A DNA stretch of 64,000 nt from Clytia hemisphaerica (lineage: Eukaryota), in the NCBI RefSeq assembly GCF_902728285.1, contig NW_027103286.1, forward strand, positions 3,356,497-3,420,496, in the 5' to 3' direction. Below, piece by piece: positions 791 to 59,064 of the stretch. The number at the start of each line of letters is the position of its first letter. The stretch's first letter is position 1. The notes below the pieces were generated by a model. That model was given only the letters and a program-made list of their open reading frames with translations. It ran no database searches and was not told the DNA's origin. Position numbers and translations under genes: made by a program.

Positions 791-1089
791 ACTACTTATA
801 CATCGTTGGAACGGAAATTTTATGCTGATTATGGAAACCCGGGTCTTAAAAAGTCCATCCTGGACAAAATTGCAAACGAGGCTGGAGTTCGCACTCCGTC
901 GTGGTGTTTTTTCGATTTTACCTGTTTTAGAAAATTGCTTACTGTCGGCAAAGTTAAAGGTTTTAGAATTTCATTTTTTATGCAAAATGCTGTCAATAGA
1001 ATGTGTTAATAGAAAAAAATTCAAAAATGTCGAAAAAAAATTTTTTTGCACTCCATCTTGGAGGATTTTGGCAAAAAATCGATGTTTTT

Positions 1090-4560: not shown

Positions 4561-5035
4561 TTAAGAAAAAACATCGATTTTTCGCCAAAATCCTCCGAGA
4601 TGGAGTGCAAAAAAATTTTTTTTCGAGATTTTTGAATTTCTTTCTATTACCCTATTCTATTGACAGCATTTTGCACAAAAAATGAAATTCTAAAACCCTT
4701 TACTATGCTGAGAGTAAGCATTTTTCTAAAACAGGTAAACTCGAAAAAACACCCCGACGGAGTGCAAACTCCAGCCTCGTTTGCAATTTTGTCCAGGATA
4801 GACTTTTTAAGACCCGGGTTTCCATAATCAGCATAAAATTTCCGTTCCAACGATGTATAACAACCCCATTCACCTTCTGGGTTAAGCAAAATTGCTATTT
4901 TGTGATTCTGCTCCCAGACTATAAAGTAGTACAATGTGTACTTAGCTCGAGGCTAATCAATATCAACTATTAATTACAAATCTATCTAGAAGGTTGATAC
5001 TCAAGATCAACTATTATTTACAAAGTAATTTAAAT

Positions 5036-28002: not shown

Positions 28003-30080
28003 ATGCCTGATAACATCGATCCTCTGAATCTCTTCAGAAAATCAAGTCTTAATATAGCTCATTTAAACGTGAATGGCCTTAGGTCGAAGCTTTATTTCTT
28101 AAAACTTCTCCTTCACCAAGAAAAATTTGATATTCGATGTCTGAATGAGACTAAAATTGACTCGACAATCACTGATAGTGAAGTCTCTATACCTGGGTAT
28201 TTACCCTGTAGGCTAGACCGCGAACATTCTTTCACGATGATTGATCCCAATTTTTCAAATAGCCCTCACGCTAAAGATTGTTCAATTGCTAATATTGGAA
28301 TAAGTGACCATTCAATTGTTTTTCAAAGAAGAGAGAAACCAATATCAATAGACCAAGGACCATAACCGCCAGGTCCTTTAAAAACTTCAACCAAGAGGCT
28401 TTTCTCGAAGACCTAGGGAATCTCGACTGGTCTGACATGCTCAACTCTACTAATGTAGACGAGGTGGCTGATATCTTTAACACCAATGTGCTAGATGTAC
28501 TTGACCGTTATGCTCCTATGGTTTAGAGAAGGATAAGTCATGATAGCCCTCCATGGGTCAACGAGGTACTACTTAATGTTGAAATTCTTAGCCGATCTCA
28601 ATCAGGTTTCCGAAACAAGTATTCAACTGATACAGCAGTTATTTGTGTGTCAGACTTTATATTAGAAGAGCTTGGGAAAGGGAAGTATGTTGGGACTGTA
28701 TTAGTAGATCTCAAGAAGGTCTTTGACACAGTAGATCATAAAATTCTTTTAAAGAAATTATTCTGCTATGGATTTAGGGACTCCTCATTCTCCTGGTTTG
28801 AATCTTATCTGTCAGACCGTCTTCAATGTACACTCCTAGGAGATACTTGCTCGGACATGATGAACGAATGCGCATACGGGGTTCCACAAGGATCGGTCCT
28901 CGGACCATTGTTATTTCTCCTTTATATAAACGATATTGGTCAAAGTATTCGACCTTCTGTGTTCCACTATCTTTACGCAGACGATACCATCATTGCTGTC
29001 AGTTCTGACTGCCCCGTGAGGCTTAGAAAAGATCTATCTGGCCAACTTTCTGAAGTCGGACATTGGTTCAGCCAAAATAAACTCACGGTAAACACGGGCA
29101 AAACCGAAGTCATATATTTTGGAAGAGCAAACAAACTGAAGGAATGCAAGAGGTTGGTCCCTATCCAATTTCAAGGCGACACTCTTGAATGCAAGGAGAA
29201 AATGAAATATCTCGGTGTCATCTTTGATGAAAACCTAAAATGGGATGCCCAGGCAATAGTGCTCGCCAGAAAGCCTATCTCAAACTAAACAAAAGGCATC
29301 TCTAGCTTTCTTGAAGATCACATGAAAAAAATGCTTTTAAATGCTCTTGTTATGCCACACATTACATATTGTTCCAATTCTTGGAGCACTATGTCAAAGG
29401 CAAACCACAACAAGTTTGATTCAGTCCTGAGCAACATCTCTAAAACCATGCCCATCAATAAGACACAAGTATGCAAGGACGTGAAGGTCGAACCGACATC
29501 GACCACCTTGTCAGGGGAGACTTTTGAAACTAAAACGACCAACATCCAAGACCATGCTCGTCTCGACATTGCTGCTAGGGGATTTTGGATTCCTGGCCAG
29601 AAGGCATTCTTCGACGTAAGGGTTTCAACCCAATCGCCAAAAAGTTCAGGAATTCCACTATCTCCAAAGCATGCAATGCAAACGAAAGGGATAAAAAGAA
29701 CATTTATAATTCAAGAATCATGAAAGTTGAGCAACGTCTCTAAAACCGTGCCCATCAACAAGACATTTGATCAGATTGTCGAATACAATAAAACACTGAT
29801 GATGTTCAAAGGGATGCGCAACATTGCGCCAAAATATTTGTGTGATCGGGTAAAGCCTGCTAGCGAGCGACATGAACGCCGCACTCGCTTTGCAAGAGAG
29901 AATAAAGTCTTTGTCCCTCTTTCCAAAAACACTTTTGCTAGTCGAACGTTCATTACCTCAACCACACATCTGTGGAACAATCAACCTTTAGAAATAAAAC
30001 AATGTGAATCCCTTTTATCGTTTAACACTATTTTTATTAGGGGGGTGTTTTCCACAAGCCTAGCACTCTTTTGCTAATAA
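28003..30080 (+). mobile_element. Decayed CR1/L2-like LINE (EN fragment 28003-28365, RT fragment 28647-29288, C-terminal region 29322-30077), with internal deletions and a short internal duplication.
   Basis: EN: LNIAHLNVNGLRSKL...IRCLNETK. RT: GTVLVDLKKVFDTVDH, AYGVPQGSVLGPLLFLLYIND, YLYADDTII. C-terminus: LNALVMPHITYCSNSWS. A duplicated block LSNISKTMPINKTQ (29440) / LSNVSKTVPINKTF (29730). Confidence 0.8.
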
Positions 30081-31653: not shown

Positions 31654-34600
31654 ATGCAGAGAATATTTTTGTTAGTGCTGGTCGTTGGATTGGCAGCTTG
31701 CCATCGAAGGCATAAAGGTAAGGAATTTTGAATGATTAGTATTTTTGAGCACTGTACTATGCAATTTGTTTTTAAGGAAACACCCACTTTGAAAGAAACA
31801 TAATCGGGTGCAAGAATTAGACAAAAGTAAGGGTAAGACATCACTTCCTGGACTAAATATTCACATTCCATAGACTTTGTCGGGACATTTCCGCTGTTTT
31901 TTTTAAGATAACCGGCCGAAAATTGTAAAGGGTTTTTTCCAGATTTTCTTTATCAGATTGGATGATGCTCGCCGGATATTTAGTCTTTTTTTCGCTGAAG
32001 AATAGCAGTGGAATTTTAGTCCGGAAAGTGAATGACAAGTGAATAACAATTTCGTTTTATAAAAAAATTATTTTCCTTCATTAGGGGGCAAAGAGAGATG
32101 GAGAGAGACAAATGAACGCTTATCATTCCAACTTCCAAACGGTAATGACTTAAATTTCATGAAATATTTTGATCAAAATTTAAAAACGAAGTACTGGAAA
32201 ATAAATTTTCCATCTGTTAGGTCGATTTCTAGCGTTTTCGAGCACTTTCTGAAAGTAACTTTTTCATTTAATCGAGTATAACTTTTGATCTAATGAATCG
32301 GAATTTTAAGATTTCGAGAAAATTAGTCTCAAAGAGAGGCGTACCCCCCGGGGGGGGGGGGGCACTCGATCTGAAATCGACCATACGTTCGGCCCAAAAT
32401 TTGGCTTCTAAAATCGGACCCTTACAGTGCAGTGAATTTCCATGAAAAAATCATACCCTTTCAGTGCACTTTTTAAAAATTTCTCGCCCGTAAGGGCGAA
32501 AATTTTTGCAATTTTCCAAGAAAATGTGGAAATTCTCCTCCAAAATTGACCAATTTTGTGATAATTTTACCAAAAAATTGGCCTTTTACCAAAATTTCCT
32601 ACCCTTACAGTGCAGTTCAGTGCAGTCTTGTAATTTCATACCCTTACAGTGCACTAGCTGAACTATGAAAAACCTACCCTTAAGGGCCGAACGTCTGGTA
32701 GGTCATTTACCTTGAGTGCCCCCCCCCCCGGGCGTACCCGCTACTTTTTCCTAAAGTCAAAGTTTCATCGATTACAGGATATTTGTTGAATCTCGTAAAT
32801 CAAGACAAATTACTATATAGATAAAATTAATCTTCCCTTACAGAATGTAAAATAGCTATCCATACCAGCGATGAAACATGTCAAAAGGATAGACTGACCG
32901 ATATTGCGAGGGCTCGATATTGGTACATACTTTCAAATGAAAACACCAACATTGATTTCCCTTTGGCTCATGAAATCCCATGGTTGGCCCATAACTTAAC
33001 GGCGGTTAATTACTATTACGCATTGGATCCATTCGAATCGCGATACATGGTACTTCTCAGCACCTGGATTTCCGCTATTATCACCACAATTACGCCAGCC
33101 ATAACCAAGGCTTTCGCAGGTGTCTCTTTCGAGTCCAACCAAGAGTATGTTGCGTGTTATGGTGCTTTCCAGAAGGCCATACAGGTACCAGGCCTAAAAC
33201 TTCTTACAAACGTAGTACATGAAGCAAAGGACTAAGGTCGTTTAGAATTCATGTAATACAGAAATATGGATGTTATATGATAATACAATACTTGTTAAGG
33301 GATATAATATTAGTTTGTATACAATTGACTATAATTTGTATACCATCATTTTTTTGCTTATTTTCTAAAATGTCTGAATTAGTCGTAGCATAGAGGTCAA
33401 TAGACCTGCGAAATATATTGCTATAAAATAAAATGCTAGACTAAGGATAATCAGGACTGGATAATATGAAGTTATGTATGATTTATAATGACAGTTTATT
33501 ATGAAGCTTAACCCTATTAGCCCCAAGCTTTTTTGACTTTTGTATCCCCAGGGGGGGGGGTAGAATCTACCACCGTCGATTATTTTCGATCTAGAAGAGC
33601 TATGGCCATGAAATTTGGTACAGATGTTCTCCATCATGATACAATTTTCCAGGAAGAAAAAAAAATTTGATTAAGTCATTCAAAAACTGATGACGTCATC
33701 ACAAAATTTCAACCTGTCGGAAAAAAGCCCAAATATATGGTTTACAAAAATGTATATTACAGTCGAACCAATAAAGATATTTCAATTATGTTTGAAGATT
33801 CTGAAAGATAAAAGACTGTTCTTTAACATAATTGCCGGTTTCGCAAATTCCATGAAGAGTTTTTCTTAAAATCTATGCTGAAGATGAGTAAAATTTTCAA
33901 AATTTGATGACGTCATAAATGATGACGTCAGCATTTTCAAAAATTTTCTTTTAATTTTTTAAATTTGTATTATCAATGCCTATCACGTGTCAAAATTTGA
34001 AAATGATTGAATAAATAGTTTAGAAGTTATCAGCACTTTAAAATTTTGAGTTTTAAGCGATTTAAGCTGGGTTTTATGTCATGTTTCACAATAAAGTCAT
34101 AAAACCTGATCTGGACAACCTATGACCCTAAAATTATGCACAAGTACTCGTAATAAGATTTTATTAAAAGTCAGAAAGTTTCAAATCGTTTGAAAAATTT
34201 TTCTCCGAGATATAAACAAAAGAACTCCAGCGTGGTAGATTCTACCCCCCCCTGGGGCTAATAGGGTTAAGAAGACTCCACTTTGGAATTTGTTTATGGA
34301 ATCCCATTCTCAGTAAAAAAAGATTCCTTTCACAGTATAAGACCACGTTCACACGCTACGTTCCGTTTCGTTCCAAAACGAAACGATTCCGAAACACTGT
34401 GTGAACGTCAAAATTGGAAACGTCAAAAAAGCAGACGTTACAAAGCAAAACAGATCGAAACGGTTTCGCTCCGCTATTTTCATTGGAACGGAACTGCTCC
34501 GTTTTCTTGCTCCGAAACGTTCCGAAATGAGTATGAGCACTTCCTATCCGTAACAATTACCCAACAAATACCACACCGGAGCGATACGAAAGCGTAACGT

Positions 34601-37600
34601 CTGAACATGGTCTTAGATTTAATAAAAACTTCTGTATTTTCAGGCGCTTCAAGCCCCGCAATACTTTGGCAATCCTGCAGAGTATCCCGACTTTACGGAT
34701 CACATCACCAATGGTTATTACCTGGAAGACGATGCGTTTGTTCAACGAAGACTTGCGGGACAATGTCCTTTCCTCATTCAAAAAGTCATCACTGAGGGTA
34801 AAAAACATCGCACATACGTTTGACTCTTGCTAATTCGAACTATAGAAATAATTTTTAACTGTTTTCCTCTTAATCGGATTATAGAAAGATTCGAATAATA
34901 TAAGATCGAATTAAAGAGAGCCGGCACTGCAGTGAAAGATATCCGAAAGGGTCCCAAAAAAGGAAACATCTGACGAAAATTGAACACAAAATTTCATCTT
35001 TTCACATCACCATTTCTTTTGTTCTCTCTGATTTTCATTTTTCAAATTTCCTGATTCATTATCCTCATTTATTGACAGGTGAGAGAGGGTTCAAGCTGGA
35101 CGATTTGATGCCTATGTTGAACCAAGACTTTTTTGAGACGTTCGAGATGAAATATTCCGATGAAATGGTCACCATGGAAGAGGTATTTAATAGACTAGTT
35201 TATAATCCTCGTAAGACAGTGAATATGGGTAGTGTATGATAATAGGATGGTTGTTAAGGGGTAACATTAGTTTTTATAAAGTACTATTATAGACTAAAAT
35301 AGACCTTATCGGAGTTTTCTATTTTTCTAAAAAAGCGAGGAATTCCTAAGAGATTTCTATTGTAATACACTTGAAACAATCCCACAATGCATCGCTTTTT
35401 CAGAAAAATCAAAAACTCCGATAAGGTCTATTTGTCCCTTCTACTATCTTTTGGTGATTTTCTACAGTGTCCGAATTAGTTTTCTCCAGTCGTTTGGTAC
35501 CTTCAATCATACATCAGAGTCTTCATGTAGCTCAAATTTCTTTAAAGTTTAAATACATTTTCCGAGCCTTCAGTTAAAGTGAAGTACTCTCTGAACTAGT
35601 CTGATTCGCAGACCTAAACAAACCACAGATGTGAATACCAGCAGCCTTTATCTGTTCTACATAACAGTTTTGCGTACCCTGCATGTGTTTGGGTTCTATT
35701 AGACTGGCGCGCCAGTCGGGCTGGAACGGTATCACACGGGAGAAGTGAGCGCAGGAGTTAGGTAAGTGTAGGAAGAAATTTTGTCGGCGGCAAGGGCTGA
35801 AAGCTGTTAATCAGCAGCCTCTCAGCAACTTTTACTTGTTCTCCTACGCAGCTCCTATTTCAGCAAACGCCGCCGCCTTTATGTTCCCACTCTCTGACAT
35901 GATTAATCAACAGACTAGTTTGCTAGTCTAGGGTTCTAGAAAAGGAGCTATATGGTTCACTAAAGTTCATATCTTAAAGGATCTTCCTTTCTGTTTCAGG
36001 CCATCAATCATCACCGTCTGTTCGTCCTCAATTTACCGAACATGAAGGACATCCAGAATGCACCGGACGCTCACGGTGATCTGTACACCGACCGTAAACT
36101 CTCTCCTCTCACTTCACCGATCTCATTCTTTCTGTTGGGAGATGATGGTTTGTTGAAACTGGTGGCCATCCAAAGATATCCCAAATCATGTAAGTAGACC
36201 TTTTCTTTTAGCTGAGCGAGACCAATCTTTTCTTTTCACCCTCTAAATTAACAGCTATTCACTTCCTTTTTAACGTTGTCGTTAAGCATCAACGTCTTTG
36301 AAGAAAATTGAAAATATCAGTACTTCAAATTCCTTATCGTTCCAGCTTCTGAAGTGTACACACCATCAAGTGAAAAGAACATCTGGTCGTTGGTCAAAGG
36401 AGAAGCTGAGCTCGCATCTGACATGTACTGTCAATCAAAAATTCACTTAGGAGGCGTTCATTTCGTGTCCACCATCTATTGTTTGTCCTTTAGACGACAT
36501 TTAAGCACCAAACACCCTCTCTACGATTTCTTTAAATACCATTGCGAAGGGACTGTCCCTCATATCACCACAGTCTTCGGGACTTTGACCACCCCCAATA
36601 GTTTGGGTAGCAAGCTTTACGGAATGGGAAGTGAAGGACTCGTCAAATTAGCCAAACAGAGTTATGATGAGAGAAATTATGAACACTCCACCTTCGACTT
36701 CTTCATTAGGGTATGTATTTTTTTCTACTTACTTTGGAGTCTATATGACACACAGGAACACTACTTTGTTCGAGTCACGGAAACTTTTAGATAGGGAACA
36801 AAGTTTAATAGGCATTGATTGTTAACTGAAGGGACAAGAAAACTTGTTCGAGTGAAGGAGACATTCGAGTTGTACAGGTGAGAGTTAAAAAGACTCGATT
36901 CTGTATACGTAAACTTTATTTTTAGGAAAGTCTCGAGGTGTAGTTTTTACCTTTATAGCGGTAATCGAAAAGAGGGGTAAATCACCGCACTCCATAGCAT
37001 AGTGAGCTCATTGTGGATATATAGATATGGTTAACCCTAGAATATGCTATCGTCTAAGACAAATCACCATCTAAGAAATAAGCCCAAAGCTGAAGAAAAT
37101 TCGCAAACAGGCTTTTTTGCTGAAAAGAGTTTACAACTGGTAGAGTTTGTCAGTCTTCGAAACTCTCCCGCCGATTTTTTTCTGTATACCGCCATAACGC
37201 CAAACCGCCCTATTTTCCCGCTTTTACTATCACTGTAGACGATAACATCGTCTAGGTTAACCCTCGCCAACCTTCTTTTTGTTTTACCAGGGTCAAGGTT
37301 TAGACGATACTCGAATCAAGTATTACCCTTTCCGTGAAGACGCCATTACATTGATGGGAGAGTTCAACATCTTCATTGAAAATCTTCTGAGGCGTTATTA
37401 TGGATCAAATTCTCATCGCGTCCGCGCGGACAAAGAATTGCAATCATGGGTGAACGAATTGTCCATTGATGGGAAAATTCAACCTGATGGCGGAAAAGGA
37501 AAGGTGAGAGAGTGAAGTCATTTGAAATTTATCCCTAGTTTTTGACGTCTAAGAATTAATTAGTCACAGAAGTGAACAATGAATCTGTCAATTGTTTTTA

Positions 37601-38786
37601 ACTTTGGACTACATCACAGAAAAATAGGGAACTTTACCGAGAAAACTTAATTACTACTTACCACAAGTCCTGAAAATTGTTCTTTCGATTCAACGCTGGA
37701 TGGTTTACCAGCAAATCAACTTGTGATCTCTAAAGACGAAAATTTATCTAATTTATCTACCTTTATCTAATTCCCTTTTTAGGTCATTGCTTTCCCTTCA
37801 TCTTTCCGTTGGCGAAGTCAGTTAAAGACTTTCTTGCAACGTTTCATGTGGATGAACATTTTTCACACGTCAGCAAATTATTACACACACCGAGATTTCC
37901 TACCAGCTTCTCCAAGTAAATTTTACGAACTGAACAATGGAACACAGCTCCCTTATCTTCAAGCACTCTCTGGAAAAGCATACAATGTTGTAAGTACCTT
38001 TTGTTGTAGTTAATCTAAATGATAAACTTCTGGGCAACCATTTCTTTGGGATATTTGTAATTACAACTTTCAGTCCTTTCTGCTACTAAAATTTGAGAAA
38101 AGAAACAACACAATTTTAATGATTTCGAAATTCAAACTCTGAGTGCCATAGTCGTTTATAATTCATCTAATACAGTAATATGTGTCTTACATGATAATTA
38201 CGATAATTGTTCCTGGATAAAACCGGTATCAGTTTGTCTTAACGACTGCAATTTGTTATTTTTTGCTTATTTCTCTTTACTATGTCTGAATTAGTCATCT
38301 AGCATACTACATTATAAGTGCCCAACTACTCTGTACCAGAAAGTAACGGGGTGGTACAGTCACTTTCGGTCGGGGTTGTGGACGGCGAAATATGTCGTTT
38401 TTATGAAATTTGTCGTTCTTTTTGTCTATTTTTAGTAATGCAGGATTCTTTAGATAAACCCCTCCACTCACGTTTATCATTTCTACGGAATTTTGAAATT
38501 AGTCCGTAGATATCCGGTCTGTATTTAAACAACTACGATTTTTTTCTTATAGGAATATATGAGATTCGAAGGAATGTTGAACAATTTCCGAGTGAACAGA
38601 ATTTTCTCATACTGGAAAGACATCACAAACCCGACATACCGACGAATTGTGCGCAAAGCTTTTTATCGTTTGAACACCATCGTCCAAAAGAAGTTAGAAA
38701 CAAGAAATGCTGAACGTAAAGCCAAAAATCAATTGGGTTATCAAATCATGGAACCAAAATGGCTGACGAATAGTATTCATATTTAA
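31654..38786 (+). CDS. Lipoxygenase gene A: nine exons, 623 aa, with a signal-peptide-like first exon, no recognisable PLAT domain and all iron-ligand motifs present.
   Basis: Exons 31654-31717, 32844-33184, 34644-34797, 35079-35182, 36000-36189, 36346-36710, 37291-37503, 37783-37989, 38553-38786. All junctions are GT-AG and phase-consistent; 1872 nt = 624 codons. LOX motifs: DDAFVQRRLAGQCPFLIQKV (DxxF..QRLAGxNP); SPISFFLLGDDGLLKLVAIQ; IHLGGVH (His-x4-His); FHTSANY (His-x3-Asn); ELQSWVNEL; C-terminal ...LTNSIHI with the terminal Ile iron ligand. Exon 1 MQRIFLLVLVVGLAACHRRHK is hydrophobic and signal-like. Confidence 0.85.
32335..32750. mobile_element. Palindromic MITE in LOX-A intron 1. Its TIRs contain C/G homopolymer runs (gcgtaccccccgggggggggggggcactcga...acgttcggccc) and the internal motif cccttacagtgcag is repeated.
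   Basis: Left 32339-32395 versus the reverse complement of right 32690-32748 (gggccgaacgtctggtaggtcatttaccttgagtgcccccccccccgggcgtacccgc). Confidence 0.65.
33512..34281. mobile_element. MITE in LOX-A intron 2 with ~45-bp TIRs containing a G10-11 run (cttaaccctattagcccca...ggggggggggtagaatctaccac).
   Basis: 33508-33570 versus the reverse complement of 34228-34281 (gtggtagattctaccccccccctggggctaatagggttaag). Confidence 0.65.
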
Positions 38787-41072: not shown

Positions 41073-44000
41073 TCAAATATGGACGCTATTTGTCAGCCAT
41101 TTTGGTTCCATGATTTGATAACCCAATTGATTTTTGGCTTTACGTTCAGCATTTCTTGTTTCTAGCTTCTTTTGGACGATGGTGTTCAAGCGATAAAAAG
41201 CTTTGCGCACAATTCGTCGGTATGTCGGGTTTGTGATATCTTTCCAGTATGAGAAAATCCTGTTCACTCGGAAATTGGCCAGCAAACCTCTGAACATCAT
41301 ATATTGCTGAAAAGGAATTTAATTTTCAAATTAATTATATAGATATGGTATTAACAAAACCCATGCGGCCAAGCGACCAAGCCCTGTAAACGGTCTAAGT
41401 TATAACCTAGGATTTGTAGATATAAAACACCCTATTGGTTTACTCAACTTTCAGCTGATAGTTTGAAAGTCTTCAAATGAAAACCACATAATGAGGCCCC
41501 CCCAGCGGTTGGCGTGATGGCGTGATGGAGGGTTTTTCGTGGCGTGATGGCGTGAAATTTTGAAAAAAAACGGCGTGATGGCGTGAAAATGAAGTGCCGG
41601 CGTGATCGTGAAATCGAGATTTTTTAGGCGTGATGGCGTGAAATTTTCAGTTCAGCGTGATCGTGAAATTATATTTATTAGTTGAATTGTATTTCTATGT
41701 CCATTTTAGCCAATTTAGAGGGTTTAAATTTCAAAATTTTCTTGGTCGGCCCTAACTATGGTGGGGCCTCCTATAGATTAGATTTCATTTTAAAACATAA
41801 AAGAAACGGTGCAAACAGTTCTATTCATCTGTCATTTATCCTTGTAACTTCTGATTGTTTTTAGCAGTTGCTAGCTAGTCTTCAAAATAAAGTCGAATGC
41901 TATGAGAGGGTCGAAAATTGAAATTTTTTCCCGTCAGCGAAAACCATGGTTGCGCTTTCTCCGTAACTAACATTTCCCTCTCTTTCTTAGATGCTTATTC
42001 TTAGATGCATCCAAGACATCAGGTCCTTTATTTCAGGAAAATATACATTTGTAGCAAAGCCATAAACAGAAAGAAGCAACAGGTTTATTATGAGGGTGTA
42101 ACTTAAGCAGATTGATCAAAAGAATCTGTGATGTTTAAACCATATTTTGGAAAAAAAGAGAGTAAATGAGGGCGATTTTAGCCATACTAAATTAAAAATT
42201 TCTCCTGTCGGTGCAAACCATGGTTGCGCCTCCTCGTTCCCCTTTTGAAAACTTTTCACGCTAATTCACAATTAATGTACTTTTAAAAGATTTCCATTAT
42301 TTTTACATGAGTTATTTTTCAAATTGAATTGAAATGGATCCCAAAATAGCACTTTGAACCCTTCAAAATTCAAAAATTTTCTCCGTTACCCAACCATGGT
42401 GGGCTTTGTCAATTTACTCAAACCGGTGCCCTTTGATGTGACCAGTTGTCCAACAATGTTTTATATGCATAAGTCAAGATTACGTCATTTTTCCTATCGG
42501 AAACACCCGAAAAAACTGGAATTTACCCCTGTGTATTACTAAAAATAGAAAAACAGATGTCAAATTTCTTCCAGATTTTTCGGGTGTTTCCGATAGGAAA
42601 AATGATATAATCTTGACTTGCTTACGCGTATGAGAATGCCGATGAAAAACTGATTAACGACCAAGCACATACCTATTTGTGTTTATATATAACAAAAATT
42701 ATGAGCATGAAAATAAATTTTCTAGGCGTAATGGCGTGAAATCGAAAGAAATTGGCGTGATCGTGAAAATCAAATTTTTCAGGCGTGATGGCGTGAAATC
42801 GAAAAAAAATTGGCGTGATGGCGTGAATTTTGGGTCCGCTGGGGGGGCCTCCATAATATACTCACAACATTGTAAAGTTTCCCAGTAAGAGCTTTCAATA
42901 AGGGCAGGTCTGTTCCATCTAGATTTTGATAAAGTCTAGTGGGTGAAGTTGGCATGAAATCTCTGTAATCAGGATAATTTGCTGAAGTGTGGAACAAGTT
43001 AATCCACAGAAAGCGTTTTAAGAACGTCCTCAACTGATCGCATGTTTCGAACTTTGCTGGAAAACCTTTCATCTAAATGAAATAACAATAGAGATATTGG
43101 CTGGGAAGAAGAAGAAGAAAATATAAGCGCGAAAACAAATTTCAGGTGTCGGAAGTGTATTCAAAGAGATACATGTAAGGAAGAAGGTCAAAAATTGAAA
43201 CTCTTCATTTTTAGCAAAACATTGTCTTGAGTTTCGAGTTTGGTAATACACTCTCAAAGCCAACGCAGACCTGTTACGCACTGGGAAAAAAACCCAAAAA
43301 TTAAACCCTGGTAAACAAATAATATCCAGTTGAAAAGCTTTAATTTGGAAAATGAGACATGGGTTTGGTGACATTTAAACACATTCCACACCTTTCCTCG
43401 CCCAGCATCAGGTTGAACCGTTCCTTCAGGCGACAACTCGTTAGCCCATGATTGTAATTCAGCGTCCCTGTGAATTCTTCCTCTTCTGTAATAAGTCTTG
43501 ATGATGTCATCGATGAAAGTCTCGTATTCTTTCATAATTTCTTTGACGTCATCACGGAAAGGGTAATATTTAATGTCCTCGTCATCCAAACCGTTACCCT
43601 GGAAACGCAAAATATTGGATTCTTTAAAACAAGATTCTAAGGGATAGTTTCAAAGTCGGTAAGAAATATTATGTACGCATTCTAGATCATATTATGAGTA
43701 AATTTACAATTTTGCATAAGCCATTTAGTTTAAAAAACTACCCCAGGTCAAATCTTAATAAAGGTAAAACGCCTTTACGCATTGTTCTTACCTCAATGAA
43801 ATCTTCATAAGTGTTGCTTTCATAATCTCGTTCTGCAAAAGCTTTTTGCGACAAATCAAGAAAACCTTGATTCCCGGTTCCGTAGATGACACTACCCGCA
43901 GCATTGGGTGTGGTCAAAGTCTCAAAGACTGTGGTGATATGAGGGACAGTCCCTTCACAATGGTGCTTAAAGAAATCATAGAGGGGGTGCTTGGTGCTCA

Positions 44001-46545
44001 AATGACGTCTAAAGGACAAACAGTAGATGGTGGACACAAAATGGACTTCTCCGAGATGTATTTTAGCTTGACAATAAAGGTCTGATGCCATCTCAGCTTC
44101 TCCTTTAGCTAAAAGCCAATTGGAACTTTCTGGTGTATCAACTTCGGATGCTGGAAAAAAAGAAAAGTTTTAAATACTAGCTTTCAGTTTATTATCTCAG
44201 TGCTTTGTAAAGTGATTGTGCGGAAAGAAATCTTTTTTTGTTTTATAGAATTACAATCGAGAAAAGATGTTTTCGTCAGTAGTTACTTGGATCAAGTTTC
44301 CTCTTCCACTCAAATCCCATACCTAATCAAAGATAGAGTTCAAACATACTTTGAACAGGATTTCTTTGGATCGCAACTACGTGTAAAAGTCCGTCATCTC
44401 CCAACACAAAGAACGATATCGGTGACTTGACGTCAGCAAGTTTGCGATCTTGCAATAGCGGTGCGAATACGTCGGGTACGTTTTTAATGCCCACCATTTC
44501 AGGGATGTGAAGTACAAACAATCGGCCGTCCTCAATCGCCTATAAATAAAAAATAAATACAAAGTTTTGAAAAGTTGAATCTTTCTCTATTTGATTTAAG
44601 GCAGCACAATAATGACTGGGTTCTAAGAGCCCCCCGAACGGTTTGTGTGATGACGTGATAAGGACTTTTTTGTAGCGTGATTACGTGATTTGGATTTTTT
44701 TTTGCGTGATTGCGTGATCAGAGGTCAAAACGTGATTACACGAAACGTAAAAATTTTTTGAGCCATGATACGTGATTTGGACTTTTTGGACTTCGTGATC
44801 ATGATTGAAGACAAACAATTGTGTCATATCGTGATCAGAGTTACCGCTAGGGGGAGGGGGGGGGCTGTTCTAAATTTATACTCGTCGCGAAAGCAATAGT
44901 TTAATAAAAAAGTATTTCTGGAAGAATTAAATTGTAATTACCTGTTCAATAGACACAGATTCTGTAGCAGAATATTTCATTTCAAAGTCTTCAAAGAATT
45001 TGGTGTTGACTAAAGGTTTCAAATCGTCCACGTGGTAGCCTTTGCCATCTGTAAGAAGAAATATTTTTCTGTTATTGAATTTAAAAAGAAGATATGGAGG
45101 AAGGTTAGCATATGGTAGTGTTCACTTCTTTAAAACTTCGTTGGGGAAAATTTTCGTCGGGGAAAAATTCGTCACTTGCTGGTAGTTGGTAAACGCATTA
45201 AGGCCGGGGAAAATTTTCGTCAGGGAAAATATTCGTCACTTATCCAAAATTTCGTCACTTTTTCCCGACGAAGTTTTCCCTGATAAGGGGCATACGAAAT
45301 AAGAAAAAAAAGAAAAATCATCTCATGAAGATTTCTTCAAGGTACCTTCATCATCAACGACTTTCTTCAAGAAGTAGGGACATTGACCAGTCAATCTTCG
45401 TTGAGTAAACGCCTCGTCAGTTTGCCAGTGACCCGTCAAAACATGGTCTGTGATTGTAGGGAATTGCGATGGGTTGGCAAAATATTGTGGTGCTTTTGTC
45501 GCCTACACCAAAAGAAGAAGTGAATAATTTATTTTTAAACATGAAATGTCGGAGAGAATAAAACTTCCAGAAATGTTCTAGAAAACTCTCAATGTGATTG
45601 AAAAGATAAGTAATATCGGGACACAACAAAATCATTTGTTCAAGTTGTGCAAATAGAAAAGCGCACAGATGAAGAGGACAATTAAGAAAAAGATTTTCTC
45701 ACCTGAACAGATTGCTGCCATGCTTTATAAGCAATCGCATATTCTTGCGGGCTTTCGAAAGAAGTCGTGTTAAAAGCAGCAGTTAAACCAGGGAAGACGG
45801 TGTTTAGCAATATGTTTGTCCACGTTTGAAGAAGCACTAAATGTCTCGATTCAAATGGATCCAAGGCGTAATAATATTTGGTTTCAGATAGATTCTGCGC
45901 TAACCAGGGAATCGTTGAAGCCAAAGGAAAATCAATGTTGGTGTTTTCATCGGAAATTTTGTACCAATATCGAGCTCTTGCGATATCGGTCAGTCGCTCT
46001 TTCTGACAGTTACGACGTGCACCGACTTTGACAGGACATTCTGATAAAAAAACGAGAAATGTTTAAAAAAATAACGACACTGAATTTTGACTCTTGGGAA
46101 AAATAAGATATAAAAAATATGTTTGACCCTTAACGCGTGAACCTTACTTTTGCCCTATTCCCTGTGTTAAGGCGAAAATTGGGCGGATTACGTTAGAAAC
46201 TTCAAATCACTCACCTCTTGGTATTGAAGTGCGACGAGAAGACCTGTGGGATCTTTTATTCTTCCAGCGTCCCAACACCATCTTTGTTAATTTTGCCAAA
46301 TCTTCGTCTAATTCTGAAATAGAAACAAAATTATAATCTTTAATACAAGTTGGCTGATAGTTTGAAAATGTTCCACATACTAATGATTAAAAGAGTTAAC
46401 TATCGTCACGCATGAAAATATTTCTCCTTTTTTAGGCCTGGGGAAAGACGTAAATTAAACAACACTTACTCGTTTCATCCTGGTGAAGTGTGGAATGACA
46501 TTGTGCTACCACCACACATGCAAGTAGCAGGGTTACAACCTTCAT
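41073..46545 (-). CDS. Lipoxygenase gene B: nine exons, 624 aa; a paralogue of LOX-A in convergent orientation, with a signal-peptide-like first exon.
   Basis: Exons (minus strand) 46470-46545 (ATG 46545), 45703-46040, 45346-45502, 44942-45048, 44350-44539, 43792-44150, 43392-43598, 42866-43072, 41073-41306. All junctions are GT-AG and phase-consistent; 1875 nt = 625 codons. Motifs: DEAFTQRRLTGQCPYF; WLLAKGEAEMASDLYCQAKIHLGEVHFVSTIY (His-x4-His); FHTSANY; ELQSWANEL; C-terminal ...LTNSVHI. Confidence 0.85.
41494..42850. mobile_element. Foldback-type element in the last intron of LOX-B. Its inverted termini (gaggcccccccagcgg / ccgctgggggggcctc) are followed by subterminal tandem 'ggcgtgatggcgtgaaat' repeats.
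   Basis: 41494-41680: gaggcccccccagcggttggcgtgatggcgtgatgg...ggcgtgatggcgtgaaatttt.... 42715-42850: ...ggcgtgatggcgtgaaatcgaaaaaaaattggcgtgatggcgtgaattttgggtccgctgggggggcctcc. The internal motif 'aaattttctcc.tc..aaaccatggttgcgc.tcctc' recurs at 41895, 42195 and 42370 (and at 3120). Confidence 0.6.
42480..42610. repeat. Hairpin (inverted repeat of ~45 bp with a ~40-bp loop).
   Basis: caagtcaagattacgtcatttttcctatcggaaacacccgaaaaa ... tttttcgggtgtttccgataggaaaaatgatataatcttgacttg. Confidence 0.7.
44625..44870. mobile_element. MITE related to the 41494-42850 element (gagccccccgaacgg...cgtgat-type repeats...ccgctagggggaggggggggg), in a LOX-B intron.
   Basis: Termini gagccccccgaacggtttgtgtgatgacgtgat and gttaccgctagggggaggggggggg; internal (c)gtgat(t/c)(a/g)cgtgat tandem motifs. 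Confidence 0.5.
45120..45290. repeat. Palindromic repeat (cgtcggggaaaaattcgtcac / gtgacgaaatttt..cccgacgaag) in a LOX-B intron.
   Basis: Inverted repeats of 'ttcgtcggggaaaa(a)ttcgtcac' on both sides of ~45210. Confidence 0.5.
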
Positions 46546-48362: not shown

Positions 48363-49690
48363 CTAAATATAACTATCAATAACATTTTTCCATTCCACAC
48401 GATTCAAAGCTTTCCCATACCACTCACATTTCAATATACCAACTTTATTCAAACTTTTGTAAACTCCACGCCCATACGTGAATTCAGGGGCCCCGCGTGG
48501 GCGCCTTTCGCTAACCCAGCATGTCAGCATCTTACGGGGCAAACGATCAGAGGGCATTCGGGTTACGTGCCCTAACCAGCGTAGTTGGCGACGTGTAACA
48601 TATACATCAATAGAGAGCAAACCAGTGCGCTCAAGCAATTCAGCCGTCGAAATTCGGTGGGATCTCACATGATTTAAGTTAACACGGCATATGGTGCGGA
48701 CACAACGAGCATGAAAAACTCTCAACTTTCTATAAACAATTTCAGTAAGGCACCAGTGCTCAGAGCCATATAACAAAATCGCCAGAACAATGCCTTCGTA
48801 GACAGATTTTTTTGCTGCGAACGAAACATTAGTAGAACGGAATAAACAATTTCTCAAAGCTCCAAACGCACTGCTGGCTGCTTTTATTCTCGACTCGACG
48901 TCAAGGGTATCTTTACAATCACGCGATAGGATTGACCCCAGGTAACAAAAACGATCGACGATCGGCATATGGGATGCATCATCGATTTTGACATTACCAA
49001 GATTCGTATTATCGAAAGACAGGGGATCGGTATAGGTTTGGTTCGGAGCAGAAACAAACAAAATTTCAGATTTAGAGCTTTTCTCTTCGGTACCAACATG
49101 GATTTCTAGACCGAATCTTAGAAAATGCTTGACTAGTGGTGGAAGGTAGGTTTCGACAGAGCTTCTTGATGTGAATAGAACTCCGGTATCGTCAGCATAC
49201 TCAGAGTCCGGTAACGAAAACTGTTCACATTTTTTAGTTGAAGGTCGTCTACCGGTTAGGATATCGTCAAACTTGGTGTGAAAGATACAGACTTCTCGTG
49301 TGTGAGTGGTTCTCCAAGATATCATTACAGCAGCAAGGTAGAAAATGAAAAGGAGTGGACCCAGTATATCACCCTGTTTGACACCAATTATACTTTCGAT
49401 CCTTTTAGTGATGTCATTTACAACAAACTTAACTTCCACATTTGCGTGAAGTGATTTAAGCAGACGTACAAGTTTATCAGGGACACCAAAAATATATAAC
49501 ACTTCCCAGAGAAGCTCGCGCGGTACTCGATCAAAGGCTTTGACCAGGTCGAGAAATAATATCCAAGTCTCTTGGCCATGTTCCCTGCGCTTTTTCATTG
49601 CCATTTTTACTGTGAAGATCCCGTCAACACATCCACGCCCAGGACGAAAGCCGCACTGGGGTTCATGGTCAAGGATCTGCTACCACCTCA
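48363..49690 (-). mobile_element. 5'-truncated non-LTR retrotransposon fragment (RT domain, RTE/L2-like).
   Basis: 413-aa ORF 48363..49604 with FLDLVKAFDRVPRELL, GVKQGDILGPLLFIFYL, EYADDTGVLF. An upstream extension QILDHEPQCGFRPGRGCVDGIFTV (to ~49690) ends abruptly, as expected for 5' truncation. Confidence 0.85.
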
Positions 49691-50395: not shown

Positions 50396-51729
50396 TCAGG
50401 AGATACCAAGATATTCTCTGAGACATTTCGGTAGATTATCATTCAGAAAGGTGTCACTGAAACTTCTCAAGCAAGCCATTCGTGCGATATGTTTCAAGGA
50501 GATTTTCAAATGATTATATGGTGGAGTTACTTTCGCAAATTGTAGCACACTGTTTGGATTTCGGAATGCTATCTCCTGCATGTGTAAATTGAATGAAAAG
50601 TCACCAATCCATCTCTTGAAATCATGAATTATACTTTGTTCTCCCGATCCAAAATCATACAAATAAATTGACGCGAATCGTTTGTTTCCTCCTGGAGTGA
50701 CTTGAAGGCCAGTGATGAAGTACTGCCCAAAACATTCCACAACTTTGTTGAAAAAGATATGTTTTCCTTGGTAAAGCAAATTGATTATTTTCAATGGGAT
50801 AACCTCATTTTTGCTGTTGACTTGAAAGAATTTTAAGCTTTTTACCCTCGTTTTGATATCGCTCAAGTGCATAAAGAATACAGATTTTGACAAATGGTAC
50901 AACATTTGATCCTCGAAAGTCTCTTTTTCATCATCAATAGTCACTCGTTCAGCCAGAACTTGATTTCCTGAAAAATCGAAACCATATAAGAACGGACCAT
51001 ATAATCATAGTCGTGGATAAAAATTCTCTCCGAACTAATATCTATGGACAGCTGGAGATCTATGTGGGATGTGTCGAATGTACCGGGTTCGAAACTAAGC
51101 TCAGTACAATTACTCAGCACAACACGCTTGAAATGTGATAGCTTTGTCTTGTCCATTAAGACAATATCAGCCACAAAATTAAAACCACCGGTAGAAACAA
51201 GCACCATTAAGGCGTAACCATATTCTTTGGTTTTTCCCTGCCAAAAACATTGGATGCACTGCAAAGCTTTATATGGCTCCAGTTCAATGACACAATCCTC
51301 CGTTTCTTGAAAAGTGGTTGATACAATACTTCCTGGAGGAGCACCTAAAAGGTGTTTCATGCTTCCACTATGTAATATCAAAGGTTGGCTCCCATCTTCC
51401 AAAGTCGAAGGCTTCTCAAACACAAACCAACGATTAAGTGAAGCGTTATAGGGCCAATCACATTCTAAAAAATTAGAATCGTTCCACGTTGGTAATTTAA
51501 TCAAACTCATTTGTAATTTAGCTGTTTCCTCATTGAATGAATAAACAGCGATGACATGATCATCTGTGCTGTCCCATGGCCTGGTATATGAAGTATAATA
51601 TCTTCCAGAGCTGTCAAAGCCACACACAGTTCGGTATACGGGCGGGTCAAGTCCAGTCCACGTTTCTTTTGTCTCTACACATTCGGTGAGATGAGGTGGT
51701 AAGAACACTTGCCGTGGGTAAGCCAACAT
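50396..51729 (-). pseudogene. SOCS-box family copy 1, split into two overlapping ORFs by a frameshift near 50941 and ~13 bp shorter than copies 2 and 3; divergent (~60% aa identity) apart from its first ~25 codons.
   Basis: ORFs 50941..51729 (MLAYPRQVFLPPHLTECVETKE...) and 50396..50944 (...NHLKISLKHIARMACLRSFSDTFLNDNLPKCLREYLGIS) are collinear with the 448-aa copies but in different frames. Confidence 0.55.
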
Positions 51730-53783: not shown

Positions 53784-55130
53784 TCAAGCGAGTCCAAGAT
53801 ATTTACTGAGACATTTCGGTAGATTGTCCTTCAAGAATTCGTCATGAAAACTTTTCAAGCAAGCCATTCGTGCCATATGTTTCAAGGACATGTTTAAATG
53901 ATCAAAAGGAGAATTCACTTTTACGAAGCGTAGATAAGGGCTTGATAAATACATCAAACTTGCTGTTGGGTCAAAAAGCGCTATTTCCGCCATATGCCAA
54001 TTAATTGAAAAACCGTAAATTTCTCTTCTACAATCGTACCGGATCATCAGTTCTCCTGATTTGAAGTCGTACAAACAAACCGAATGAAATGGTTGGGAGC
54101 CTGCTTCTGAAGTGACTTGAAGGCCTTCGACAAAAAATTGATCAAAACATCCAACGACTTTGTGTAAAATAATATCGTTTCGTCCATGACACAAATTAAT
54201 TCTTTTCAATGGGATGACCTCATTTTTATTGTCGACTTGAAAGACCTTTATGCTTTTTGCCTTCGTGTCAACGTTCTCCAAAAAAACATAGAAGATCGAG
54301 TTTGACAAATGATATAAATCATTAAAATTCTGAACACCTTCCCTTTCGGAGATTGTGACTTCATAATCCATAAGGCGATTTCCCTCAAAATCAAAACCAT
54401 ATACCATACCATATTCATAATTATGAAGGTAAATTCTCTTAGAATTCATATCTAGCGATACACCAGAATTATGGAACGCAAACGTTCTAGGTTCGAAATC
54501 CATTTCAGTGCAACTGCTCAACACAACACGTTGGAAATGTGAAAGTCTTTTTTCGCCTATTAAAACGATGTCAGCCACAAAATTGTAACCACCAGGAGAT
54601 ACAAGCACCATCAAGACGTAACCATATTCTTTGGTTTTTTCCTGCCAAACACTATGGATGTAATGAAAAGCTTTATATGGCTCCAGTTCAATGACACAAT
54701 CCTCCGTTTCTTGAAAAGTGGTCGATACAATACTTCCTGGATAAGCATATAAAAGGTGTTTCAAGCTTCCACTGTGTAATATCAAAGGCTGGCTCCCATC
54801 TTCCAAAGTCGAAGGCTTCTCAAACACAAACCAACGATTAAACAAAGGATCATACGGAAAGTCATATTCATTATAGCGCAAGTTCCATGATGGTAATTGA
54901 ATTAAACTCACTTGTAGTTTATCTGTTTCCTCATTGAATGAATAGACGCTTATGATATTGTCACCTGCTTTATCCTCAGCTCCGCAATATACGGTGTAAT
55001 ATTTCCCAGAGCTGTCGAAGCCACTCATACTTATTTGCTGGGGGCGGTCAAGACCAGCCCACATTTCTTTTGTCTCAACACATTCGGTGAGATGAGGTGG
55101 TAAGAACGATTGACGTGGGTAAGCCAACAT
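53784..55130 (-). CDS. Intronless gene (copy 2 of a tandem triplet) for a 448-aa protein with a C-terminal SOCS-box-like motif and an uncharacterised ~400-aa N-terminal domain.
   Basis: Uninterrupted ORF with ATG at 55130. C-terminus ...SPFDHLNMSLKHMARMACLKSFHDEFLKDNLPKCLSKYLGLA resembles the SOCS-box consensus (SLqHLCR..I........LPLP..L..YL). Confidence 0.6.
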   Translation of the reverse strand: MLAYPRQSFLPPHLTECVETKEMWAGLDRPQQISMSGFDSSGKYYTVYCGAEDKAGDNIISVYSFNEETDKLQVSLIQLPSWNLRYNEYDFPYDPLFNRWFVFEKPSTLEDGSQPLILHSGSLKHLLYAYPGSIVSTTFQETEDCVIELEPYKAFHYIHSVWQEKTKEYGYVLMVLVSPGGYNFVADIVLIGEKRLSHFQRVVLSSCTEMDFEPRTFAFHNSGVSLDMNSKRIYLHNYEYGMVYGFDFEGNRLMDYEVTISEREGVQNFNDLYHLSNSIFYVFLENVDTKAKSIKVFQVDNKNEVIPLKRINLCHGRNDIILHKVVGCFDQFFVEGLQVTSEAGSQPFHSVCLYDFKSGELMIRYDCRREIYGFSINWHMAEIALFDPTASLMYLSSPYLRFVKVNSPFDHLNMSLKHMARMACLKSFHDEFLKDNLPKCLSKYLGLA

Positions 55131-56871: not shown

Positions 56872-57290
56872 TATGACAGAGCTGGCACATACAGAAGGTG
56901 AGTGACACTACAGAAAGTGAGTGACACTACAGAAAGTGAGTGACACTACAGAAAGTGAGTGACACTACAGAAAGTGAGTGACACTACAGAAAGTGAGTAC
57001 ACTACAGAATGTGAATGACACCTGTGAACTTATTCTTTAGGTAGTGCTGGAGGTGTTGAATTTGACCCATGTGTTGCAATTTTAGAAACACTCATTGGTC
57101 GAATTCCGGTGTTTTTGGGTGTTTCCGATAGGGAACATGACTTTAATGCTTTTATAGATAACCAGAAAATTATTTACAACTTGAAACTTACTCTGTGATG
57201 ACACTCACTTTCTGTTAGGTGTCATTCACGTTCTGTAGTGTACTCACTTTCTGTATGTGCCAGCTCTGTCATAAATCTACTACCTGGGGG
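56872..57290. mobile_element. Complete MITE with ~30-bp TIRs (gaagtagatttatgacagagctggcacat / atgtgccagctctgtcataaatctactac) and subterminal 20-bp tandem repeats, inserted in duplication unit 3. The paralogous empty site is at ~53400.
   Basis: 56860 gatttgtggggg|a gaagtagatttatgacagagctggcacatacagaaggtgagtgacactacag(x5)... ...ttctgtatgtgccagctctgtcataaatctactac|ctgggggtagaggtattctgcatc. Unit 2 has gatttgtgggggttgaagcattctgcatc uninterrupted. Confidence 0.75.
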
Positions 57291-57717: not shown

Positions 57718-59064
57718 TCAAGCGAGTCCAAGATATTTAATGAGACATTTCGGTAGATTGTTCTTCAAGAATTCGTCATGAAAACTTTTCAAGCAAGCCA
57801 TTCGTGCCATATGTTTCAAGGACATCTTTAAATGATCAAAAGGAGAATTCACTTTTACGAAGCGAAGATAAGGGCTTGATAAATACATCAAACTTGCTGT
57901 TGGGTCAAAAAGCGCTATTTCCGCCATATGCCAATTAATTGAAAAACCGTAAATTTCTCTTCTACAATCGTACCGGATCATCAGTTCTCCTGATTTGAAG
58001 TCGTACAAACAAACCGAATGAAATGGTTGGGAGCCTGCTTCTGAAGTGACTTGAAGGCCTTCGACAAAAAATTGATCAAAACATCCAACGACTTTGTGTA
58101 AAATAATATCGTTTCGTCCATGACACAAATTAATTCTTTTCAATGGGATGACCTTATTTTTATTGTCGACTTGAAAGACCTTTATGCTTTTTGCCTTCGT
58201 GTCAACGTTCTCCAAGAAAATATAGAAGATTGAGTTTGACAAATGATATAAATCATAAAAATTCTGAACACCTTCCCTTTCAGAGATTGTGACTTGATAA
58301 TCCATAAGGCGATTTCCCTCATAATCAAAACCATATAACATACCAAAATCATAATTATGAAGGTAAATTCTCTTAGAATTCATATCTAGAGATACACCAG
58401 CATTACTGAACGCAAACGTTCCGAGTTCGAAATCCATTTCAGTGCAACTGCCCAACACAACACGTTGGAAATGTGAAAGTCTTTTTTCGCCTATTAAAAC
58501 GATGTCTGCCACAAAATTGTAACCACCAGTAGAAACAAGCACCATTAAGACGTAACCATATTCTTTGGTTTTTTCCTGCCAAACACATTGGATGTAATCA
58601 AAAGCTTTATATGATTCCAGTTCAATGACACAATCCTCCGTTTCTTGAAAAGTGGTAGATACAATACTTCCTGGAAGAGCACCTAAAAGGTGTTTCAAGC
58701 TTCCACTGTGTAATATCAAAGGCTGGCTCCCATCTTCCAAAGTCGAAGGCTTCTCAAACACAAACCAACGATTTAACAAAGGATCATACGGCAAGTCATA
58801 TTCATTATAGCGCAAGTCCCATGATGCTAATTGAATTAAACTCACTTGTAGTTTATCTGTTTCCTCATTGAATGAATAGACGCTTATGATATTGTCACCT
58901 GTTTTATCCTCAGCTCCGCAATATACGGTGTAATATTTCCCAGAGCTGTCGAAGCCACGCATACTTATTTGCTGGGGGCGGTCAAGACCAGCCCACATTT
59001 CTTTTGTCTCAACACAATCGGTGAGATGAGGTGGTAAGAACGATTGACGTGGGTAAGCCAACAT
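57718..59064 (-). CDS. Intronless gene (copy 3) for a 448-aa SOCS-box-like protein, ~93% identical to copy 2.
   Basis: ORF with ATG at 59064. C-terminus ...FDHLKMSLKHMARMACLKSFHDEFLKNNLPKCLIKYLGLA. Confidence 0.6.
   Translation of the reverse strand: MLAYPRQSFLPPHLTDCVETKEMWAGLDRPQQISMRGFDSSGKYYTVYCGAEDKTGDNIISVYSFNEETDKLQVSLIQLASWDLRYNEYDLPYDPLLNRWFVFEKPSTLEDGSQPLILHSGSLKHLLGALPGSIVSTTFQETEDCVIELESYKAFDYIQCVWQEKTKEYGYVLMVLVSTGGYNFVADIVLIGEKRLSHFQRVVLGSCTEMDFELGTFAFSNAGVSLDMNSKRIYLHNYDFGMLYGFDYEGNRLMDYQVTISEREGVQNFYDLYHLSNSIFYIFLENVDTKAKSIKVFQVDNKNKVIPLKRINLCHGRNDIILHKVVGCFDQFFVEGLQVTSEAGSQPFHSVCLYDFKSGELMIRYDCRREIYGFSINWHMAEIALFDPTASLMYLSSPYLRFVKVNSPFDHLKMSLKHMARMACLKSFHDEFLKNNLPKCLIKYLGLA

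Follow-up and report, generated by a model that had tools for sequence, protein, structure and literature searches.

Two introns of a lipoxygenase gene in the hydrozoan Clytia hemisphaerica each contain an inserted element with short repeats near its ends, which raises the question of what kind of DNA these elements are and how they came to lie there. The gene is part of a 64,000-nucleotide stretch (contig NW_027103286.1 of RefSeq assembly GCF_902728285.1, positions 3,356,497 to 3,420,496 of the forward strand), which we call the window and to which the coordinates given here refer. A first-pass annotation, made from the letters of the window, had labeled the elements as foldback elements or transposable elements of the miniature inverted-repeat type (MITEs). 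Our analysis indicates that element 1 (41493-42851, 1359 bp) and element 2 (44627-44867, 241 bp) are most likely both non-autonomous class II transposons, that is, cut-and-paste elements with terminal inverted repeats (TIRs), and members of one family of C. hemisphaerica and related marine organisms. The features that define such non-autonomous elements and MITEs were all found: TIRs, 6-bp target-site duplications, a lack of coding capacity, and presence at many unrelated loci.

Inverted ends, one-directional arrays, and duplicated flanks

The ends of element 1 form a perfect inverted repeat. On the left (41493-41508, plus strand), the terminus is GAGGCCCCCCCAGCGG; on the right (42836-42851, minus strand), the plus strand reads CCGCTGGGGGGGCCTC, which is complementary to the left end in 16 of 16 positions. 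Across the 64-kb window there are exactly two occurrences of GAGGCCCCCCCAGCGG, without mismatches and in inverted orientation, as compared to 0.05 expected by chance. Immediately outside, the same six nucleotides, CATAAT, stand on both sides (41487-41492 and 42852-42857). The limits 41494-42850 given in the first-pass annotation had located the element correctly, but were one base short at each end. Element 2 is a degraded short form, the ends of which are eroded versions of those of element 1 (left, GAGCCCCCCGAACGG; right, CCGCTAGGGGGAGGGGGGGGGCTG). It is flanked by TTCTAA on the left (44621-44626) and on the right (44868-44873), so that its earlier placement at 44625-44870 was right as to location, with the true limits at 44627 and 44867. 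Thus, the inverted C-run and G-run termini that had been claimed for both elements are present, as a perfect 16-bp pair in element 1 and in eroded form in element 2.

The elements had also been described as carrying direct tandem repeats that contain CGTGAT, and this was confirmed by a scan for the motif GGCGTGATGGCGTGA with up to three mismatches. The motif occurs 12 times in the window as compared to 0.33 expected, and 11 of the occurrences lie inside the two elements, all on the plus strand. The left subterminal array of element 1 (41511-41672, plus strand; motif scan and repeat families) is made of six head-to-tail units, each consisting of GGCGTGAT(GG)CGTGAAAT and an A/T-rich spacer. These units are spaced by 26-31 bp, and the first of them starts 20-21 nt from the terminus. 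The right array (42725-42829, plus strand; motif scan and Tandem Repeats Finder) has four units that point the same way as those of the left array, with periods of 30 and 57 reported by Tandem Repeats Finder. Both end arrays run one way; the array gives the element a fixed polarity, and its two ends are unlike. The body of element 2 (44627-44867, plus strand; repeat families, Tandem Repeats Finder, and motif scan) is filled by some six units, all of them forward, that follow the variant (T/A)GCGTGATT(A/G)CGTGAT. Arrays with a period of 29-30 were detected by Tandem Repeats Finder in both elements (42725-42827 and 44642-44718). In element 1, we found no long open reading frame (ORF) in any frame and no Pfam match in the six-frame translations.

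The proposal of a transposon family, which a lack of other copies with these termini would have refuted, was borne out by ten copies read as DNA at unrelated loci and by 45 read-through translations of such elements. The DNA copies (L034, L045, and L063-L070) come from marine metagenomes (JGI, Tara Oceans, and others in ENA). When marine metagenomes were scanned for pairs of neighboring repeat units, 61 contigs were retrieved, 59 of which were unrelated GC-rich or octamer repeats, leaving L034 and L045 as the only relatives. L034 is related to the long form. Its positions 99-443, 790-933, and 1093-1248 align in order to element 1 with 75, 87, and 95% identity, respectively, and its right end, which reads ...GGCGTGATGGCGTGAATTTTGGGTCCGCTGGGGGGGCCTC and is 95% identical to the right array of element 1, borders a flank unlike that of element 1. 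The interior of element 1 (41673-42724, plus strand) is non-coding and collinear with L034. Because about 1 kb of this extra non-coding DNA is shared, the 1.36-kb form has itself been copied. L045 is a complete short form of 266 bp with the same 16-17-nt ends and CTAGTG on both sides. Element 2 is 76% identical to it over 160 bp, and the motif variant of element 2 is common to the Tara Oceans copies L063-L066.

None of the 12 copies read as DNA, including the two in the window, contains a long ORF. The short forms, namely element 2 and those from metagenomes, measure 222-369 bp and, being under about 800 bp, can be called MITEs, as had been suggested. Element 1, with its 1359 bp, is too long for this name, and the term non-autonomous long form suits it better. 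The family therefore includes a 1.36-kb form alongside short MITE forms, which are about 220-370 bp long.

On the strand that reads TCACGC, all three reading frames are open; hence, we searched protein collections with the translated elements. The frames of element 1 gave one weak match, P0015 from a Tara Oceans contig, which turned out to be a true relative. With P0015 as a query, 14 representatives were retrieved, and a profile built from them detected 45 proteins, all of which are read-through translations of such elements. At the start of these proteins stands the C-run end in translation (PPGG, PPSG, or PPQR), and they close with that of the G-run (LWGG, RWGG, or TAGGA). Seven further contigs were then read as DNA.

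We then compared the arrays of the 12 DNA copies, each oriented so that the motif reads GCGTGA. Among 101 repeat units, 100 are forward and one is reverse. The units are about 30 bp long, each includes a 14-bp bipartite site, GCGTGAT-NN-CGTGA, and the most frequent spacing between neighboring units is 30 bp (exactly 30 bp in 30 of 86 intervals and 29-31 bp in 45 of 86). The first unit starts at nucleotide 20-22 in all 11 copies having that end. There, the terminus GAGG(C)6-9 A(GC/TA)GG TT(T)G is followed directly by the first site, and the repeats come within 2-4 nt of it; at the opposite end, the last site is separated by 9-22 nt from the G-run terminus. The ends are about 16 bp long and consist of 5'-GAGG, six to nine C, and AGCGG, the last being replaced by ATAGG or AGGGGG in other subfamilies. 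The GAGG(C)n tips are conserved in all copies with intact ends. The linker of the site also tells subfamilies apart, as it reads GCGTGAT-GG-CGTGA, GCGTGAT-TG-CGTGA, or GCGTGAA-TG-CGTGA. The family is real, dispersed, and split into subfamilies.

The ends and arrays are conserved above the interior (95% versus 75-87% between element 1 and L034). This better conservation, together with the strict 30-bp phasing and the fixed distance of the first unit, favors the view that the subterminal repeats are plausible, if putative, transposase binding sites. As the repeats stand near the terminus and carry the most conserved sequence, the arrays have the look of sites for end recognition and not of a satellite-like core.

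The flank duplications, which were absent from the first-pass annotation, are perfect over 6 bp in three copies at unrelated loci (element 1, element 2, and L045). We estimate the chance of each perfect match at about 4e-4 at the local base composition. Near-perfect matches were found in L070 (5/6) and L066 (4/6). In the clean cases, the adjoining G and C are part of the inverted repeat (5'-GAG...CTC-3'), so that the duplication measures 6 and not 8 bp. A/T-rich intronic sites, among others, serve as targets. In element 1, perfect termini and a perfect duplication suggest that the insertion is fairly recent, and for this reason, activity may persist in the family and strains may be polymorphic for it.

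Other collections gave no relatives. In viral collections, two scans were empty and a third yielded one contig without the family termini, which was not examined further; in prokaryotic genomes, there were four chance matches and no arrays. No further copy is present within the window besides a weak likeness to the subterminal array at 37166-37222 (minus strand; ACCGCCATAACGCC..., E about 0.008), in an intron of the lipoxygenase paralogue LOX-A. This resemblance is unconvincing and may represent an old eroded relic of the element family or chance.

Each repeat unit contains two GCGTG cores (41511-41672, 42725-42829, and 44644-44840). GCGTG is the core of the response elements of bHLH-PAS proteins (xenobiotic and hypoxia responses). 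That dispersed copies might seed clusters of regulatory sites in genes is pure speculation.

Insertion into old lipoxygenase introns and alternative origins

The host gene, named LOX-B in the first-pass annotation, is encoded on the minus strand and extends from about 46545 to 41076. Its joined exons (minus strand, 41076-44539) are 98% identical to the C. hemisphaerica lipoxygenases XP_066919919 and XP_066920211. Individual exons are 93-100% identical to these proteins, and some single exons match XP_066920211 at 100%. Exon matches obtained by tblastn placed both elements in introns, in agreement with the earlier claim. Element 1 lies in an intron between codons 580 and 581, which measures 1559 bp, or 194 bp without the insert. 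The neighboring exon ends at 42866 (tblastn) and is followed on the minus strand by the donor GTGAGT (42865-42860). The element begins 14 nt past this donor, which is thus outside it, and the right copy of CATAAT occupies intron positions +9 to +14. The intron that hosts element 2 (44935-44540) is 396 bp long, or 149 bp without the insert.

In the paralogue LOX-A (plus strand, 31654-38783), both codon positions are likewise occupied by introns (37990-38552, and the one between 35191 and 35997), which lack the elements. Therefore, the elements inserted into old introns rather than creating them. The annotated lipoxygenase protein is spliced as though the elements were plain intron sequence. Both copies entered pre-existing lipoxygenase introns and are removed by splicing along with them.

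The two annotated lipoxygenases are more than 90% identical to each other, and the contigs that carry them differ (3.47 and 3.97 Mb). The pair may represent haplotigs or the result of a recent duplication. The window is slightly closer to XP_066920211 than to XP_066919919. The other annotated copy of this pair could serve as an empty-site comparison for both elements.

The location of both copies in introns, with element 1 starting 14 nt past a splice donor, is also what could be seen with introner-type elements that made their host introns. This origin is highly improbable, given the element-free introns of LOX-A at these two positions. Furthermore, the element ends carry no splice signals, the GTGAGT donor being 14 nt outside, each intron retains 149-194 bp of its own sequence, and the copy in L045 is not in an intron setting but downstream of an ORF. 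Even less credence can be given to an immobile local minisatellite that sits between short inverted sequences and was duplicated within the lipoxygenase gene. It would account for the interiors of the short forms, which are essentially tandem arrays with a period of about 30. However, it is refuted by the dispersed copies: the same ends are found with different flanks on unrelated contigs from several sampling projects, the sequences of the perfect 6-bp flank duplications vary between copies, and the register of the array to the termini is the same in all copies.

The foldback label had to be abandoned. A foldback element has long inverted halves made of subrepeats and snaps back on itself. 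The inverted, G- and C-rich termini of our elements would agree with this, as would the fact that element 2 folds better than its shuffled versions (z = -4.6). However, the folding of element 2 comes from local hairpins of the CGTGATTACG-type variant and not from the snap-back of two arms, while L045, the cleanest intact short copy, folds like shuffled sequence (z = -0.37). The decisive point is the orientation of the units, which run in the same direction at both ends, with 100 forward units and only one reverse. The end arrays are direct, and only the termini of about 16 nt can pair (exactly 16 nt between the ends of element 1). The window does contain a genuine foldback element (796-4860), and it looks quite different. 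It has inverted arms of tandem units of about 350 bp, which pair over up to 406 nt with 91-94% complementarity, and a center of about 1.4 kb with one copy of a hairpin motif. A single motif of 50-75 bp is all it has in common with element 1, and it belongs to a different family. A foldback nature of elements 1 and 2 is thus very improbable, and we keep to non-autonomous transposons with short TIRs.

Hairpin motif, nested palindrome, and neighboring sequences

The motif shared with the foldback element had been reported in three copies within element 1. The motif is real (nhmmer, E between 1e-14 and 1e-20), but element 1 contains four copies, all on the plus strand. They are located at 41713-41787 (noted as the weakest match; E = 1.8e-15), 41902-41977 (E = 1.5e-20), 42177-42253 (GGTGCAAACCATGGTTGCGCC, with a predicted hairpin; E = 5.6e-17), and 42354-42423 (with the variant stem CCCAACCATGGTGGG; E = 2.8e-14). 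Its reported recurrence near 3120 was also recovered, as a lone copy at 3112-3184 (plus strand; E = 5.3e-17) in the center of the unrelated foldback element 796-4860. L034 carries three copies (95-169, 356-430, and 864-938). The motif, 50-75 bp in length, contains an imperfect palindrome around CCATGG, with AAAATTTCTCC before it. Its stem exists as GGCGCAA(A)CC ATGG TTGCGCC and as GTTGCCCA(A)CC ATGG TGGGCAAC, and in both versions, complementarity is retained although both arms have changed. As there are only about three independent versions, this covariation is suggestive at most. A hairpin is predicted for the single-stranded DNA in seven of eight copies, the best being those of L034 (-8.5 and -11.0 kcal/mol in per-copy folds).

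A 149-bp palindrome with 51-nt arms, 94% complementary, is nested in element 1 (42471-42619). It is missing from the corresponding part of L034 and is a separate secondary insertion that lies outside the element family. Relatives of the palindrome are found at 476-558, 57059-57141, and 38405-38442. A module of about 85 bp is common to the palindrome and the first two of these, both of which are next to arrays of 19-bp tandem repeats (608-743 and 56890-57021) that have opposite orientations. A search of 41300-45000 with Rfam gave only sub-threshold matches to microRNA precursors, and these fell on the nested palindrome.

ORFs with reverse-transcriptase motifs (YADD-type) are present at 5036-7453, 28647-29288, and 48363-49604; therefore, retrotransposon copies lie around the lipoxygenase pair. 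The metagenome copy L064 also adjoins a reverse-transcriptase ORF. In L045, the copy is directly downstream of a minus-strand ORF (589-1650) for a secreted-looking protein with about 30 RRPWGT repeats and may lie in a 3' untranslated region. Further along the window, three tandem paralogues of an intron-less ORF are found on the minus strand (50396-51729, 53784-55130, and 57718-59064). This ORF would encode 448 amino acids if intact, with the N terminus MLAYPRQ.FLPPHLT.CVETKE.

Mobilization, superfamily, and comparison with known transposons

The structure of the copies points to the following mode of movement. A transposase encoded elsewhere in the genome would be supplied in trans and would bind the phased bipartite GCGTGAT..CGTGA sites via a sequence-specific DNA-binding domain. 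Binding would probably be cooperative along one face of the helix, since a spacing of 30 bp corresponds to about three helical turns and would place the sites on the same side. The transposase would synapse the two unlike ends and cleave at the GAG/CTC tips. Re-insertion would proceed with a 6-bp staggered cut, the repair of which would yield the 6-bp target-site duplication. The short forms are essentially the two ends joined, with only putative binding sites between them.

Several points weigh against this interpretation or against an assignment to the hAT superfamily. The copies known in Clytia are the two in this window. Six metagenome copies lack a clean duplication: L064 has lost its GAGG tip, the left ends of L067 and L068 are eroded or missing, and L063, L065, and L069 have no flank match. 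All copies without a flank match are diverged elements on short-read metagenome contigs. Either age, end erosion, or chimeric assembly across the repeat may be the cause. The 6-bp rule rests on three perfect and two near-perfect cases, and GCGTGAT..CGTGA as a protein-bound site is putative, as judged from sequence. In the window and in the metagenome copies read, we found no transposase gene with these ends, nor any BED or hAT-dimerization transposase linked to them; for this reason, both mobilization in trans and the superfamily are what we infer. Finally, the usual tip of hAT elements is YARNG. The tip GAGGC departs from it at position 1 (G and not C/T) and position 5 (C and not G), while the A at position 2, the purine at position 3, and the TIR length of 16 bp fit; YARNG is a rule for hAT elements generally.

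Short inverted ends combined with many subterminal sites are typical of hAT elements. These usually create 8-bp duplications, but groups with 5- and 6-bp duplications, hAT5 and hAT6, are recognized among the animal hAT lineages (PMC12730594, which cites Kapitonov and Jurka 2007 for the definition of hAT6). The hAT6 group agrees best with a duplication of 6 bp, short inverted ends, and subterminal repeats and is our best guess, although a tentative one that we hold to be rather less than evenly likely. Not far short of an even chance, the family could be the same kind of non-autonomous transposon from a superfamily other than hAT, either a Mutator-like lineage with 5'-GAG tips or an undescribed one. 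The tip 5'-GAG...CTC-3' and its departure from YARNG favor a non-hAT origin, and the other superfamilies with 6-bp duplications that we checked in published descriptions (IS3EU and Dada) do not fit either.

The ends of Mu-type and Mutator-like elements start with GAG or GRG, and Mutator-like elements typically make duplications of 8-11 bp. IS256 and MuDR elements taken together create duplications of 4-10 bp (PMC10045372). In our family, all clean cases show 6 bp; hence, a Mutator-like assignment was set aside, although the 5'-GAG tip resembles Mu ends. Polintons have long inverted repeats with AG..CT tips. They create 6-bp duplications (PMC10045372); a Polinton-like reading was set aside, as were the IS3EU, Dada, Mutator-like, introner, and foldback readings, in each case on the grounds of termini, length of the duplication, unit orientation, or conserved introns. 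IS3EU and GingerRoot agree with our elements in making 6-bp duplications, but end in TA..TA or TAYGG (TAYGG..CCRTA) (PMC10045372 and PMC12730594) and not in GAG..CTC. Dada elements have no inverted ends and insert into small-RNA genes (PMC3706591), whereas our family has clear TIRs, and no RNA gene is present at its insertion sites. As the GAGG(C)6-9 tip, the 6-bp duplication, and the polar 30-bp-phased arrays together match the termini of no superfamily that we could verify, we also considered an undescribed hydrozoan cut-and-paste lineage in which the ends would be recognized by cooperative binding to the one-directional array and not through the inverted repeats. Such a specific scenario seems unlikely.

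Whichever superfamily the non-autonomous elements derive from, they are of an already known class of mobile DNA and give no indication of a host function. Judging from the searchable literature, the family itself was previously uncharacterized, and its one-directional arrays of end sites are unusually regular. It makes up 1.6 kb of two lipoxygenase introns in C. hemisphaerica, which is a developmental model, and its ends and duplication length are defined well enough for genome-wide masking and for a transposase hunt. The polar, helically phased arrays provide a clean natural example of asymmetric transposon ends, and if the transposase is found, the family would be a convenient system to study how such arrays are read.

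Foldback elements, such as the one at 796-4860, resemble the present family in having inverted termini and internal subrepeats. They differ in that their arms are long and inverted, while in the present family, inversion is limited to about 16 nt and the subrepeats run directly. The DTC84 MITE of the clam Donax trunculus is, by its description (PMC3879986), likewise a short non-autonomous element of marine invertebrates with tandem repeats between end modules. Compared by description, it carries these repeats in its center, whereas in our family, they lie near the terminus and are the most conserved part. The hAT6 elements and hAT-derived MITEs share with our family the 6-bp duplication, the short TIRs (about 16 bp), the subterminal repeats, and the occurrence as non-autonomous derivatives in animals; in contrast to their scattered short motifs, the sites here form a strict one-directional 30-bp array. 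Another parallel is the hAT transposon Hermes. The BED domains of its transposase bind asymmetric, precisely phased subterminal repeats, an arrangement that is needed in cells together with about 220 bp of each end (PMC10368747). As in Hermes, where sequence beyond the inverted repeats is needed, the short sites are asymmetric between the two ends and their phasing to the terminus matters, our arrays extend past the TIRs, differ between the ends, and keep a fixed distance from the terminus. Hermes has 4-bp AAGT/AAGC sites at irregular spacing and an 8-bp duplication, as opposed to 14-bp bipartite sites at 30-bp intervals and a 6-bp duplication in the present family. Thus, by analogy, Hermes may serve as a working model for the function of the arrays described here.

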